A stretch of DNA of 64,000 nt from a virus (taxonomy: Duplodnaviria > Caudoviricetes): positions 51,129-115,128 of the IMG/VR virus record IMGVR_UViG_3300031867_000015. One strand, given 5' to 3'. This document shows, in pieces, positions 5,085 through 29,087 of the stretch (positions are counted from its first letter, which is position 1; each line of letters begins with the position of its first letter). Below the pieces are notes generated by a model that had not been told where the DNA came from, ran no database searches, and worked only from the letters and a program-made list of their open reading frames with translations. Both the position numbers and the translations under genes were made by a program.

Positions 5085-5555
5085 TCAGCAAGTGAGTGTT
5101 GCTACCTTTATGGTGTCCACGAACTGTGAACCGTATATATCACGGATTCTGTTCATGGAATATCTTGAAGCCCTTCCTCCCTTCGTTTCATCATCCGCTA
5201 AGTAATAGCGTTTCTGCTTTGTGCTATATTGGAATCCCATTGACTTGATTTTTACAAGATACTTTCCTACGTTGTCAAGCCATATCCAACCGCCTATTAT
5301 CTCGATACGGATATCCGAAAAGTGTATCAGCTTTTCAATTATCCCTCTAAACTTCTCAGGGACTTCTTTTGAAGCTTTTTCCTTTTCCTTTTTGTTTCCG
5401 TGAGTAGCGAAATACTTAATCATTTCATCGTATTCGCTGTTGATTTTCTGCATTGTCTCCACATCACCGCCCATGTCAGGATGATATTTCCTGCACAGCT
5501 TGTGATATAATTTTTTCAGTTCATCCAGTGTCTTGACTTCTTTGAAAAAATTCAT
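5085..5555 (-). CDS. J-domain (DnaJ-like) protein
   Basis: LKKLYHKLCRKYHPDMGGD..MQKINSEYD with HPD motif; start moved to MNFFK (GGAGG RBS, promoter upstream). Confidence 0.8.
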   Translation of the reverse strand: MNFFKEVKTLDELKKLYHKLCRKYHPDMGGDVETMQKINSEYDEMIKYFATHGNKKEKEKASKEVPEKFRGIIEKLIHFSDIRIEIIGGWIWLDNVGKYLVKIKSMGFQYSTKQKRYYLADDETKGGRASRYSMNRIRDIYGSQFVDTIKVATLTC

Positions 5556-5608
5556 ATATGTTCCTCCGTTTCCAAAGAGTAAATTGTATATCTCTTTGCT
5601 ATGGTTTA

Positions 5609-5637
5609 AGTATATCATACAATTCACTCTTTGTCAA
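5609..5637 (-). promoter_or_regulatory. sigma-A promoter with box plus inverted box
   Basis: TTGACA-aagagtgaattgtatga-TATACT; inverted box ~5576-5590. Confidence 0.8.
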
Positions 5638-5667
5638 GTAGTTTTTATATATTTTTTTGTTTTAACT

Positions 5668-6321
5668 TTATCCCTCCCATTCTCCGTAAAGTCCCTGTGG
5701 CTTTTCAAAAAAGCTGTCGTTTTCTGCATCCACAAACACATCACAGGGCGCACGATGAAGCAGTTTTGATATCTCAATAATAGCTTCATCCCTTGGTTTA
5801 TCCGTTGTATATGTTCCTACTTGTGAAGCATAAGTCCACGAACCATCAGGAATTTTTGCGATAACTCCAAAAGTATAGGAAGTATAGGCTGTTTTCATTC
5901 TTCATCATCCTCCATATAATCATAGTCAATATCAAGTTTATCCATAAGTTCTTCCAATGCCATGACCTGTGCAGAACACCACTGATACTGCTCTCTTTTC
6001 CGAACGCTTCTTCTGTCCTCATCGTATGCCTTTTCAGCTTCTTCCTCTGCCTTTAAACATTCCGCATAATATTCAAGTATTTTCTGTTCCATGATATTAT
6101 CCTCCTATCTTTTCCGATATGATTTCCAGTACCCTTTTCTGTGTAGGAATATCCCACATACCGCCTGTACTGAATCCATCAATGGTCATATTCTGAATAG
6201 ACTTTCCATAAAGTTTGATACCTATGATATGACCATCAACTTCAAAAGTTCCGTTTAACCATTCGTTTTTGAAGTTGCGCATATGGTTTTTAACCATTGC
6301 AAGAAATTCCGCTTTATTCAT
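5668..6321 (-). CDS. three small hypothetical proteins (6097-6321, 5895-6092, 5668-5898)
   Basis: translationally coupled ORFs with RBSs downstream of the 6375-6403 promoter. Confidence 0.65.
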
Positions 6322-23061: not shown

Positions 23062-23826
23062 ATGTTAATGGCTAATAAGAAGAAACCAGAAACAAAGATT
23101 GAAGAAACAACTAATATTCCAGAGGGATATGTAGAAATCACTCCTGAGCAACTTGTAGAAATGCAGAGTGGTATGCAAACCATAATGAGCATCGGACTGG
23201 CTGAAAGACTTTACCTTGAAGATAGGGCAGATAGGATTCTTTATCTTGATGGAGAAGTAGATGATGATGTTCTTCATACATTAATTCTACAAATATGCAA
23301 GATAAACGGAGAAGATTTTGGTAAGTCAAGGGACGAGAGAGTACCTATTACTTTAGTAATAAATAGTTCTGGTGGCAATGCAATTATAGGCATGGCATTA
23401 GTGAACGCTATTCAGAGTTCTATCACTCCTGTAATTGGTGTATGTCTTGGTATGTGTGCAAGCATGGCTTTTGGAGTATTTGCGGTTTGCCATACAAGGC
23501 TGTCTGTTGCAGATGCAACATTTATGGTGCATGATGGTTATGAATACAATCCTATATCTACGACAACAAAGGCACAGGACTGGGCTAAATTCTCCCCTCG
23601 CCTAACTAATAGATATAATAAAGCTATTGCGGCAAGAACTAAGTTTACAGTAAAGGAACTTGAAGATATGTCTCCGCATGATTGTTGGTTCTTTGCAGAT
23701 GACCTTGTTGATATGGGGATGGTTGATGGTATCATTGGCAAGGATATTGAAATGGAAGAAATATTTTCTTTTATGAGTGATATGTCTTGCGACTGCTGTA
23801 ATGAACATGAATGTTCTGAGAAGTGA
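23062..23826 (+). CDS. ClpP-like serine protease
   Basis: RILYLDGEV, PITLVINSSGG, CASMA (Ser), FMVHDG (His). Confidence 0.8.
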   Translation: MLMANKKKPETKIEETTNIPEGYVEITPEQLVEMQSGMQTIMSIGLAERLYLEDRADRILYLDGEVDDDVLHTLILQICKINGEDFGKSRDERVPITLVINSSGGNAIIGMALVNAIQSSITPVIGVCLGMCASMAFGVFAVCHTRLSVADATFMVHDGYEYNPISTTTKAQDWAKFSPRLTNRYNKAIAARTKFTVKELEDMSPHDCWFFADDLVDMGMVDGIIGKDIEMEEIFSFMSDMSCDCCNEHECSEK

Positions 23827-23837
23827 GGTATGTCCTC

Positions 23838-25262
23838 ATGGCTAAAAGCAAGGATAAGATTAAAATTGAAATAGTTGGCAAGAGTGGTGACGGAGTAACA
23901 GGAAGTATGTACTTCGTCACATTCAACGATAAACAAATACTTCTCGATGCAGGTCTTTATCAAACCTCGTCTGATGATATCCTTAAACAATATAAGGTCA
24001 ATCATAGGAATTATAAAGTCCCATTTGCTGACCTTGATGCTGTGATAATTAGTCACGCTCACATAGACCACATAGGAATTGTACCTTATCTTTTTGCAAG
24101 AGGTTACAAGGGTAATATTTATATTCCAAAAGGAAATAAATATCTTGCACGAATTATGTGGGAAGATAGTTTGAAGATATTTGAAAGTGATTGTGTAAAA
24201 TTAGAAAAGCGTTACGATATGAAAGCTACTCCATTATATACACAAGAGGATATAGAAGTTGCAATGGAGCATTTGGTTGAACTACCATTCGGTGAAAATA
24301 TTGTTCTGTTTGATGATTTGATTTTGAAATATTATCATGCCAGTCATATTGTAAATGCCGCACAGATTCATTTGACATTTAAGGTTGGTGAAACTATAAA
24401 GACATTATCATACACAGGAGATATTGGTTCTGATATTGATAAAGATTATATCTTATCATATGAGCCACTTCCCTACTCTGATATTGTCTTGGCTGAATGT
24501 ACTTATGGTGGTAGTCATAAGACACATAAACAAAAAGACAGAGATAAGGATATTGAAAAAATAAAATGTGTTGTTGACCAATGTTGCCAATATGATACAC
24601 AAAAGGTTTTGTTCGGTTCATTCTCTTTGAATCGTTTACAAGATATATTAACTACATTATACAAGATATACGGTGATGATGAATCATTTGCGACACCAAT
24701 TGTTATTGATGCCCCACTTGGTAAAAAGGTATCTGACATATGGGACAAGTTAATTGAAAAGGATAATGACCTTTGGAAAAGAGTTATTAATTGGAAAAAC
24801 ATTGTATGGGTTGATAGCTTTGAAAATTCTCAGGAATGGCAGAAGTTAAAAACCTCGCAAGTAGTAATTAGTACAAGCAATTTCTTAAAGAATGGACGTA
24901 TTGTTTCATGGCTCAAATCTATATTACCGAATGAAAATGCGAGAGTTATGTTATGTGGCTATGCAGGTGACAAAGATAGCGTTGCGTATCAAATTCAGTA
25001 CAGTAAGAAATACGTAAACATTGACGGAGAACAAATAAGAAGTAGAGCCAATGTAATGCAATTAGTTTCATTTTCAAGTCACGCTTGTAGAAGCGAGTTG
25101 CTTGAAAGATACACTTCAATGAATTATAACAAAATATATCTTGTTCATAGCGAGAGTGATGGCAAGAAAGAATTTGCAGAATTGCTTCGTAAAGAATTGA
25201 GTTCAGCAAATAAAACCTCAAAGGTTCACACACCTGTTATGGGTGATAAAATAACATTCTAA
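23838..25262 (+). CDS. MBL-fold beta-CASP nuclease
   Basis: SHAHIDH, HIVNA, YTGD, ECTYG, FSSHA, LVH motifs. Confidence 0.85.
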   Translation: MAKSKDKIKIEIVGKSGDGVTGSMYFVTFNDKQILLDAGLYQTSSDDILKQYKVNHRNYKVPFADLDAVIISHAHIDHIGIVPYLFARGYKGNIYIPKGNKYLARIMWEDSLKIFESDCVKLEKRYDMKATPLYTQEDIEVAMEHLVELPFGENIVLFDDLILKYYHASHIVNAAQIHLTFKVGETIKTLSYTGDIGSDIDKDYILSYEPLPYSDIVLAECTYGGSHKTHKQKDRDKDIEKIKCVVDQCCQYDTQKVLFGSFSLNRLQDILTTLYKIYGDDESFATPIVIDAPLGKKVSDIWDKLIEKDNDLWKRVINWKNIVWVDSFENSQEWQKLKTSQVVISTSNFLKNGRIVSWLKSILPNENARVMLCGYAGDKDSVAYQIQYSKKYVNIDGEQIRSRANVMQLVSFSSHACRSELLERYTSMNYNKIYLVHSESDGKKEFAELLRKELSSANKTSKVHTPVMGDKITF

Positions 25263-27204: not shown

Positions 27205-27959
27205 GTCACATAATGATAACGTTGTAACTTATGTGTCAAATTTTGAAAATGTAAGAGAAGTTGCTAAGATGCTTATAGCGTTGCCTGATACTATTATAGA
27301 AGGTGTACATTTGGAATCCCCTGAGTGGGATGGGTATGAGGGTGCATTTCTTCTTACGTTTGACGAGGATAATACTATCTGGATTCAGAAAGCTTATTTT
27401 GATGATGGAAGAATTGCCAGAGGAATAGGTGTTTATATTATTGATAAAAACTCAATAGGCACACATAGACCAGAGGAATTTCTTGTTGAAAATGAAGGAA
27501 TCAATAAAATAATTCTTGTAGGCGGTGAGTCAAATGATTGATGCTAATTATCGAAAGTATGAGTCCTATGACAAATTTATTGAAGAATTTCTTTTCACTG
27601 TAATGGACAATGGTCATGCAATTATTGTAGTTAACTATAAAGACTATCAAGGCGTGATTGAAAATCTTAATGGTAAAGTTCTGAATGGCAAGTCGCTTGC
27701 TACTGATATTGAGACAGCAGAATATTTTGATGATGATATCAAGACAGCGATAGACCATGATGGGAACATGATGATAACAGTTTATAATAATAATTCTATT
27801 ATTGTTGGCGAACCTGTTATATATTCAGACAAGGCAAATAGTTTTATTGATAGTGCATATTTCATTGAAGAAGATGCTATTGAAAAGGCTATGGGCTATG
27901 CTATCCCCAAGAAGAATATTGTACCATTTAAAATTGAGAAAAAGACTATAACGGTATAA
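27170..27959 (+). CDS. two hypothetical proteins (27170-27541, 27525-27959)
   Basis: overlapping co-oriented ORFs. Confidence 0.65.
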
Positions 27960-28032
27960 CCGTTTATATAGTTCTCGTTGCAAATCATAACGAGTAATAA
28001 AAGATGAGATGGGGCTTGATGATGCCCCATAT

Positions 28033-28069
28033 GCAGAGAGCAACTGCAATGATGTTGTAATCTACACCA
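28033..28069 (+). ncRNA. 37-nt tRNA-like mini-hairpin ending ACCA (copy 1)
   Basis: tat|gcagagagcaac-TGCAATGAT-gttgtaatctac-ACCA, preceded by a GC hairpin. Confidence 0.4.
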
Positions 28070-28269
28070 GTATAAAAGAATTAGACTGCTTCTTTGTAAG
28101 CATAATGTTTACGTTGCGCTTAGTTTCTTTGCAGTCAACTTTCAAGCTAAAGAGTTTGCAAGCATCTCTTGCATTGCGTTGTCTGTGCGCACAGGTATCG
28201 CTTTGATTTTCGTGCTTACAATACTTGCGCATTATACCCTTTACAGTACAATGTAAAGGTGCGCATTAT

Positions 28270-28346
28270 GGGTGTATCGTCTAATAGGTAAGGACACAAC
28301 CCTTTCAAGGTTGCAATGGCGAGTTCAAATCTCCCTACGCTCACCA
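28270..28346 (+). tRNA. tRNA-Glu(UUC)
   Basis: acceptor gggtgta/tacgctc, anticodon arm caacc-ctTTCaa-ggttg, gttcaaat T loop, encoded CCA. Confidence 0.9.
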
Positions 28347-28514
28347 GAATAGAGGGTAATCTTTTAGGAGATTACGTGAGATGAAAACCTCTCACCGCTA
28401 CGCCAATAGCAGTAGGTGTTCAAGAGCAATCTTGTAAAGCCATTGGTACAGGCGCATTAGTTGTTTGCTGATATCTTATAATGTAACCCGTAGTAATAGA
28501 AGAAATCAGTATGC

Positions 28515-28588
28515 GGCAGATTGGTGAAATGGCATCATATAAGGTTCATACCCTTTTGTTCTACGTTCGATTCGTAGGTCTGCAACCA
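28515..28588 (+). tRNA. tRNA-Met(CAU), possibly initiator-like or Ile2
   Basis: aagg-ttCATac-cctt anticodon arm, ctacg-ttcgatt-cgtag T arm, 1:72 mismatch, CCA. Confidence 0.8.
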
Positions 28589-28616
28589 ACAATAAGTATA
28601 AAGGAGATTTTAATTA

Positions 28617-28865
28617 ATGGACGAAAGAGCATTACAGATTGTCAGAGATTATATTATAGAACATCTTGATATTACAGATTGTACAGCAAATGCAAGTTTT
28701 GAGGTATACACAGTATGGAAGTGTAAGGCATTACAGAACTGGAAGTATCTGCTTTCAAGCACATTGCCTGACGGAATGTACTATGAACTTACATACAACG
28801 GTGACAAGAAGGAATGGTATCTTGATGCTTATAAGAAATTTCAGAACGTGGTTATCAAGGATTAA
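28617..28865 (+). CDS. DUF6275-like phage protein
   Basis: VWKCKALQNWKYLLSSTLPDGMYYELTYNGDKKEWYLDAYKK. Confidence 0.7.
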   Translation: MDERALQIVRDYIIEHLDITDCTANASFEVYTVWKCKALQNWKYLLSSTLPDGMYYELTYNGDKKEWYLDAYKKFQNVVIKD

Positions 28866-29027
28866 GTGTAACCATGAATATCAATTTTATTATTCTCACA
28901 TGATTAATGGTGGCATGGGTAAGGTAATATGTTACAAATGCCGTAAATGTGAAAAACAAATTTATAAATATATTTAAAGACAACTACTAAATTAATATAT
29001 TTCCTCCTTGCCCTCTTGGAGGGCTAT

Positions 29028-29064
29028 GCCGTTAAGTGTTGCAACGATACACAAGACAGCACCA
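29028..29064 (+). ncRNA. 37-nt tRNA-like mini-hairpin ending ACCA (copy 2)
   Basis: tat|gccgttaagtgt-TGCAACGAT-acacaagacagc-ACCA, preceded by gccctc/gagggc hairpin. Confidence 0.4.
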
Positions 29065-29087
29065 AATAAAATATAAGGGGAAATAAA

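Follow-up and report, generated by a model that had tools for sequence, protein, structure and literature searches.

The stretch of DNA analysed here (the window) consists of 64,000 nucleotides (nt) and is the right 64 kb of a 115,128-base-pair (bp) phage record in IMG/VR, IMGVR_UViG_3300031867_000015, which CheckV rates as complete. Near-identical DNA is found mainly in bovine-gut and faecal metagenomes. Between the gene for a protein of 144 amino acids (aa) and the first gene of the packaging module, the window carries two 37-nt elements, E1 and E2, along with two transfer RNA (tRNA) genes. Sequence comparison confirms that E1 and E2 belong to a real, conserved RNA family. Based on their anatomy and on the places that they occupy, the elements are candidates for plus-strand mimics of the acceptor/T-arm half of a tRNA, which would replace tRNAs as processing signals for ribonuclease P (RNase P); we give this reading about an even chance of being right. 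The features of the locus are listed below, with types A and B denoting copies of the family in different genomic contexts, SD denoting Shine-Dalgarno, and ORF denoting open reading frame.

27525-27959, plus strand: o144, encoding the 144-aa protein (tblastn synteny); its homologues precede every type A copy
27974-27994, plus strand: H0, a hairpin directly 3' of the o144 stop codon (RNAfold), with its position kept in related leaders
28009-28030, plus strand: H1, a GC-rich hairpin of 7 bp with an 8-nt loop, followed by the spacer AU at 28031-28032 (U-1 is 28032)
28033-28069, plus strand: E1, the type A minihelix, with a 12-layer stem and the loop UGCAAUGAU at 28045-28053 (50.2 bits); its 3' end is made of the discriminator A28066 and CCA at 28067-28069
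28270-28346, plus strand: tRNA-Glu(UUC), with encoded ACCA and preceded by TAT (ARAGORN and Rfam)
28515-28588, plus strand: tRNA-Met(CAU), with encoded ACCA and preceded by TAT (ARAGORN and Rfam)
29000-29009, plus strand: anti-SD stretch with the core TTCCTCC at 29001-29007, the 5' strand of a predicted helix, P1
29010-29024, plus strand: P2, a GC hairpin of 6 bp with a UUG loop, followed by the spacer UAU at 29025-29027
29028-29064, plus strand: E2, the type B minihelix, with a 12-layer stem, the loop UGCAACGAU at 29040-29048 and ACCA at 29061-29064 (48.9 bits)
29075-29084, plus strand: SD region of the next gene, the 3' strand of the predicted helix P1
29088-29276, plus strand: Znr62, a 62-aa zinc-ribbon ORF and the first packaging-module gene (Pfam Zn_ribbon_8 below the family cut-off; PHROGs)

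Znr62 is followed by a 339-aa ORF, the large terminase and the portal, and its homologues come after type B copies in related phages.

A preliminary description of this DNA had reported that the two elements are of equal length (37 nt), start with G, end in ACCA and follow a GC hairpin and a TAT leader. The sequence bears this out, with the hairpins at 28009-28030 and 29010-29024 and a spacer ending in AT after each. The tRNA-like setting that it had noted for tRNA-Glu holds for tRNA-Met as well: both genes are preceded by TAT and have an encoded ACCA. RNAfold recovers the hairpins that it had described; their layout, drawn there as an outer and an inner stem with a small internal loop between them, is corrected here to 12-layer rods with mismatches at layers 6-8, counting G8·U26. 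It had also pointed to a related tGCAA-loop hairpin at 27974-27994 (H0). Related leaders keep that hairpin in place but vary in its loop sequence, and the likeness is therefore coincidental. The folding energies of E1 and E2 are ordinary (z of -0.95 and -1.7 by RNAfold), so the case for them rests on comparison. The joint motif (the loop, 11 nt and CACCA) occurs twice in the window and 0 times in 100 shuffles. Rfam 15 has no match to E1 or E2 at gathering thresholds, and only noise at E values up to 10, which agrees with the earlier remark that the elements were not recognised as a described family. ARAGORN and the Rfam tRNA model call nothing at 28033-28069 or 29028-29064; their only calls are tRNA-Glu and tRNA-Met.

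The search for homologues that had been suggested as a check on covariation was made by pattern scans, of IMG/VR first, and turned up 28 distinct copies with covarying stems in phage and metagenome contigs. Among the IMG/VR pattern matches the stems are quite different in sequence and the pairing is kept, and the pair counts of the pattern matches are bimodal. The 28-copy alignment is 88.4% paired, compared to 59% for shuffled sequences and 24 to 52% when the pairing register is slid, the paired percentage being inflated because members were selected to have at least 9 of the 12 pairs. The covariation first noticed between the two copies in the window extends to the whole alignment, in which 10 of the 12 pairs show compensatory changes on both sides. 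A 15-sequence alignment contains 31 G·U cells versus 2 A·C cells, and this excess indicates that it is the plus strand, the transcribed strand, that folds. When scans were anchored on internal sequence alone, every match had G1, U-1, C33-ACCA and an upstream covarying GC hairpin. Scans with a relaxed loop brought up a single genuine variant, A16 to G; positions 19-21 yielded no variant.

These results bear on the idea that the elements are decayed remnants of tRNA genes, or that they act at the DNA level, as pac/cos or recombination sites near the terminase genes. Such readings would fit the location of the elements, which is within a cluster of tRNAs and adjacent to the packaging module. However, some copies are found far from terminase genes, and the compensatory changes in 10 of 12 pairs, together with a loop and ends that are invariant across diverged phages, show selection on the RNA fold. 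Furthermore, the 31-to-2 asymmetry of G·U over A·C excludes a palindrome in double-stranded DNA that a protein would read. We consider an explanation of this kind very improbable.

An exact-pattern scan of 185,579 prokaryote genomes gave 86 matches, 0 of them genuine; those with 9 or 10 pairs sit inside open frames of 690 to 1188 nt and are without the upstream hairpin. When E1 and a type B copy were compared by BLAST to 50,697 GenBank phages, only chance matches were obtained. The best of them, in MT836503 (20.6 bits), lies in coding sequence, without ACCA or hairpin, and was rejected, as were covariance-model matches of 16 to 18 bits in related genomes, which we attribute to chance. A scan of the whole phage for any 12-layer hairpin followed by NCCA gave 6 matches versus 10.7 in shuffles, and thus no excess. 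Among 79 terminase loci that are 47 to 57% identical (one 99%), the element occurs in the near-identical phage only.

Every one of the 28 copies has a 12-layer rod, a 9-nt loop and then A-CCA. The pair G1-C33 and the ACCA end are present in 28/28, and U-1 precedes the element in every context. Pair 2 is C-G or U·G, and pairs 3-5 and 8-12, plus pair 6 where it is formed, covary freely. Unpaired cells are concentrated at layers 6-8, which correspond to the acceptor/T junction (7/5), and several copies are perfect 12-bp helices. Overall, the 7+5 layers, discriminator and CCA are arranged as in the coaxially stacked acceptor and T arms that form one half of a tRNA. The loop, UGCRAYGAU, is near-invariant, as A/G at position 16 and C/U at position 18 are the sole variation found. 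Compared to the T-loop UUCRANY, it matches at 54, 56, 57 (R) and 58, has a G at 55 and contains two extra bases; its variable sites, R16 and Y18, parallel R57 and N59/60 of the T-loop. We infer that it would fold as a self-capped T-loop with U13·A17 and C15-G19 pairs.

The same anatomy tells against an armless tRNA, the form in which the elements were first pictured: a decoding or chargeable molecule with a Cys-like anticodon loop, used for translation or as a primer. The loop does start with U-GCA-A, the end is ACCA, and armless mitochondrial tRNAs of about 42 nt do exist. Those of enoplean nematodes lack the D and T arms, consist of an acceptor stem, bulges, an anticodon stem and a 7-nt loop, and decode. 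In contrast, the phage family forms a continuous acceptor+T-like rod with a single invariant loop of 9 nt, with no connector or bulges in place of D and T arms, and with the same "anticodon" in all 28 copies and both contexts. Moreover, only 2 of 28 copies have the alanine identity pair G3·U70, which is thus not conserved, the ARAGORN and Rfam tRNA searches leave the elements undetected, and a 12-bp rod would probably be too short to reach from the decoding centre to the peptidyl-transferase centre. An armless tRNA is thus scarcely credible. Of the preliminary proposal of a minimal tRNA mimic, the covarying stem, the shared loop and the encoded ACCA stand, and the armless tRNA with a Cys anticodon is not supported, since the element is a 7+5 rod.

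In most copies a GC hairpin lies 0 to 7 nt upstream, and its arms covary between phages. It was found in 18 of the 18 genomic contexts examined in viral contigs and accompanies about 25 of the 28 distinct copies. After the hairpin comes a spacer of just 2 to 5 nt, and in some type B copies it is U-rich. A consensus scan found no intrinsic terminator on the plus strand here, and the minihelix is followed by ACCA rather than by a U tract.

Every copy lies between genes, in the same orientation as its neighbours, and many border tRNA clusters. E1 and the other type A copies lie 3' of an o144 homologue and head a non-coding stretch with tRNAs. The type A leader, which comprises the o144 stop codon, H0, a linker, the GC hairpin H1 and xAU, is homologous between phages. 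In six phages this leader is followed by the minihelix and in two (L146 and L148) by a canonical tRNA-Asn, the first G of which aligns with G1 of the minihelix, base for base. The minihelix and a true tRNA therefore occupy an equivalent position. The tRNAs encoded by the phage itself are preceded by U-1 in 10 of 14 cases and have an encoded CCA in 12 of 14. Neither a CCA-adding enzyme nor an RtcB ligase was found in the phage, which would thus depend on host enzymes and on the encoded CCA.

The o144 protein has homologues only in phages, and these are absent from 78 related terminase loci without the element. Its AF2 model (pLDDT of 88) is a small alpha/beta protein; o144 has no Pfam or PHROG family and its model no clear fold match. 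Between the sister phages L009 and L315, the stretch 3' of the type A copy shows sequence conservation. A copy of a third type is found in a long structured leader 3' of a strong promoter, in L145 (G002:30000-42000, reverse complement). Positions 5535-5885 of that locus contain, in this order, a TTGACA-17-TATTAT promoter, a hairpin that resembles a terminator and has a run of U, and about 220 nt of non-coding RNA rich in hairpins; the third-type minihelix and the initial ORF of an operon come next.

E2 and the other type B copies precede a gene at a fixed distance: in 13/13, the start codon lies 22 to 26 nt and the SD 10 to 13 nt after the CCA. The gene in question is a 62- to 63-aa zinc-ribbon ORF or a glycosyltransferase-like ORF, the latter labelled by eye from an N-terminal motif. 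A TTCCTC-like anti-SD motif is located 28 to 38 nt upstream of G1 in all 13 type B copies and is absent from the 15 others. TTCCTCC itself has a single plus-strand occurrence in the 54-kb rightward-transcribed arm of this phage, at 29001. For 8/8 type B leaders folded, RNAfold predicts a three-way junction made of the anti-SD:SD helix (P1), the GC hairpin (P2) and the minihelix (P3). We set aside an alternative in which the anti-SD pairs with the P2 hairpin and not with the SD, a pairing that is not conserved (judged by eye), and a sigma-70-like promoter ending at 29001, which is seen for E2 only.

Such contexts could also be explained by a leader that acts in cis without tRNA enzymes, as a site for a phage protein (o144 or the phage's beta-CASP/RMMBL ribonuclease), a 5' stabiliser or an operator for translation, in which the loop would be the part that is recognised. 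An invariant loop on stems that are free to vary would be expected of such a site, and the anti-SD/SD layout is typical of translational control. The link between o144 homologues and type A copies, which extends to their absence from the 78 loci without the element, and the presence of an RNase J/CPSF-like nuclease in the phage point in the same direction. However, this account leaves the U-1, the G1-C33 pair, the ACCA, the 12-layer length and the exact exchange with a tRNA unexplained. The beta-CASP gene also occurs in 44 of the 78 related loci without the element, and o144 has no recognisable RNA-binding fold. We therefore regard a cis-acting leader of this kind as distinctly unlikely.

The nuclease is a 479-aa beta-CASP/metallo-beta-lactamase/RMMBL protein of the RNase J/CPSF-73 type, encoded at 23823-25262 on the plus strand. 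It is preceded by a ClpP-like protease gene (23062-23826), and this order is kept in related phages, many of which lack the minihelix.

The positions left unexplained by a cis-acting leader are those expected of an RNase P substrate. Bacterial RNase P has as determinants a U at N-1, the G+1/C+72 pair and a ruler formed by the 12 bp of acceptor plus T stem, and the RCCA motif pairs with GGU of the RNase P RNA, in its types A and B; hairpin models made of an acceptor stem and a T stem-loop are cleaved by RNase P at the canonical site (PMC11143913). The invariant non-loop positions of the phage family are the determinants named in that review, and they were recovered by scans that did not require them. 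The elements share about 12 stacked layers, G+1/C+72, U-1 and a 3' RCCA with minihelix substrates of RNase P, and they share a location at gene boundaries and the interchange with a true tRNA with t-elements and tRNA punctuation. Given these determinants and the base-for-base replacement by a tRNA in sister phages, the elements are best read as surrogate tRNAs that would direct a cut between U-1 and G1.

Under this proposal, host RNase P would recognise the 12-layer rod, the T-loop-like cap, U-1, G1-C33 and the 3' ACCA, and would cut at 28032/28033 and 29027/29028. The upstream RNA would be left with a terminal GC hairpin, probably protective against 3' exonucleases, and the downstream RNA would begin at a blunt 5' helix, which may serve as a 5' stabiliser. 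Alternatively, the 37-mer would be excised in the manner of a tRNA, and the downstream RNA would begin just after the CCA. At type B copies such as E2, cleavage would separate the SD from the upstream anti-SD, its predicted mask, and this unmasking would release translation of the first packaging-module gene. Metatranscriptome contigs span the flanking ORFs and not 27997-28600 or 28982-29065. One of them ends at 29066, 2 nt past the CCA of E2, and two start at 28603 and 28604, 15 nt past tRNA-Met. As contigs cannot define RNA ends, we do not use them as evidence.

Several observations weigh against processing by RNase P. Phages with 50 to 57% identical terminases manage without these elements. 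The loop has 9 rather than 7 nt and a G in place of tRNA U55, and its near-invariance could reflect a dedicated partner other than RNase P. Three of the 28 copies are without the upstream hairpin, and a stable hairpin 0 to 7 nt upstream might hinder binding of the leader by the RNase P protein. The third-type copy is located in a long 5' leader, where there is no upstream gene to separate. Lastly, the energies of the anti-SD:SD duplexes are no better than those of shuffles (z of -1.5 to +0.3), and the argument for P1 is therefore made from the co-occurrence of the two motifs.

It is also conceivable that the 37-mer is itself the product. Excised at both ends, it would be a free, CCA-ended mimic of the top half of a tRNA, acting in trans as a decoy or competitor for readers of the acceptor end or elbow, such as toxSAS/CapRel-type CCA pyrophosphokinases, MenT-type nucleotidyltransferases, GNAT toxins or acceptor-end nucleases. 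Phage tRNAs are known counter-defence cargo, and the toxSAS FaRel2, a reader of the pairs 1:72, 2:71, 4:69 and 5:68 plus the CCA, accepts synthetic tRNA minihelices as full substrates (bioRxiv 10.1101/2024.07.05.602228). A decoy would be compatible with processing by RNase P, with the retention of G1-C33 and Y2-G32 across the family and with the placement of copies among phage tRNAs, and the invariant loop suggests a specific partner. In contrast, the stems vary freely, with covariation at each of pairs 3-10, both from phage to phage and between the two copies of a single phage, unlike what would be expected of a decoy for a reader of acceptor sequence. In addition, no CCA-adding or repair enzyme was found in the phage, and the strict SD spacing and linked anti-SD of 13 copies favour a role in cis. 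Taken together, the unconstrained stem sequences and the cis features seen at type B copies argue that selection acts on shape rather than on acceptor sequence. We consider a decoy unlikely, and a combined role has a similarly small chance of being correct; in that case a free 37-nt half-tRNA would accumulate in infected cells and, by virtue of its self-contained T-loop-like cap and its acceptor end, act in trans as a decoy or sponge for the defence enzymes named above, and removal of the anti-SD in cis would make translation of the packaging genes dependent on RNase P.

A gene for a DUF6275 protein (28617-28865, plus strand) lies between tRNA-Met and E2 and has the region's only DNA-level matches to cultured phages, which are those of Fusobacterium, Lactobacillus and Lactococcus. 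About 370 nt of ORF-poor sequence around both tRNAs (28070-28269 and 28347-28514) may encode further small RNAs. A 10-nt leader, TGCGCATTAT, abuts the 5' ends of tRNA genes in this phage and in L143, L144, L146, L315 and L034. Two copies of it (28226-28235 and 28260-28269) flank a hairpin at 28237-28259, just before tRNA-Glu, and the leader may act as a signal for processing or as part of a promoter. The phage has another group of tRNA genes (Gln, Lys, Leu, Leu) beyond the window. Directly after the CCA of its tRNA-Lys is an element of about 69 nt (G000:C1:40868-40936, minus strand) with a 10-bp closing stem, two inner hairpins and a CACCA end, which ARAGORN does not call as a tRNA. A shorter stretch after tRNA-Leu(CAA) likewise ends in CACCA.

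The kind of element considered here is already known, in that tRNA-like processing signals and hairpin substrates of RNase P have been described. A conserved, natural 37-nt phage family with this loop, hairpin partner and anti-SD coupling is present neither in Rfam nor in the literature searched. The MALAT1/MEN-beta mascRNA module offers one parallel: RNase P reportedly cuts 5' of a tRNA-like element and so makes the 3' end of the upstream RNA, and that end, in MALAT1, is said to be protected by a structure immediately upstream. In the phage, the GC hairpin would play this protective upstream role. The mascRNA differs in being eukaryotic and full cloverleaf-like, with a CCA that is added after cleavage, whereas the phage element is a bare minihelix in which the CCA is encoded.

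The closest structural likeness is to the synthetic, AT1-type minihelices of McClain, Guerrier-Takada and Altman, which are model substrates of bacterial RNase P (reviewed in PMC11143913), with which the phage elements share a 12-layer hairpin, G+1/C+72, U-1 and a single-stranded 3' RCCA. Unlike those constructs, the phage elements are natural and conserved; they have a 9-nt UGCRAYGAU loop rather than a 7-nt T-loop, layers 6-8 are often unpaired, and the flanks contain a GC hairpin and, in one class, an anti-SD/SD pair. For the phage elements, cleavage is a prediction. In plant mitochondria, t-elements are tRNA-like structures at transcript boundaries, which are thought to guide tRNA-processing enzymes to the ends of mRNAs (PMC1920247). 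The boundary location is shared with t-elements and tRNA punctuation, and the phage element also swaps with a true tRNA. It differs in belonging to a bacteriophage rather than an organelle and in being a 37-nt top half with an encoded CCA and a family-specific invariant loop. Among non-tRNA substrates of RNase P, the precursor of the P1/P7 C4 antisense RNA and the intercistronic sites of Escherichia coli operons (PMC11143913) are precedents for the shaping of phage regulatory RNA and of polycistronic mRNAs by this enzyme, but they are without a conserved 37-nt ACCA minihelix or a linked anti-SD.

If RNase P does cut at these elements, these phages punctuate their transcripts with a 37-nt surrogate tRNA, and in one class of copies the cut would switch on translation by removal of an anti-SD. 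At 37 nt, and with clear invariant positions, such a compact system could be used to probe the minimal signal for RNase P and elbow recognition in vivo. Whether half-tRNAs are set free by phages to serve as decoys against defences that target tRNAs is a further question that it raises. If the cut is made, bacterial viruses would have in this family their own counterpart to mitochondrial tRNA punctuation and to the MALAT1-mascRNA module, as well as a natural version of minihelix substrates that have hitherto been mainly laboratory constructs.

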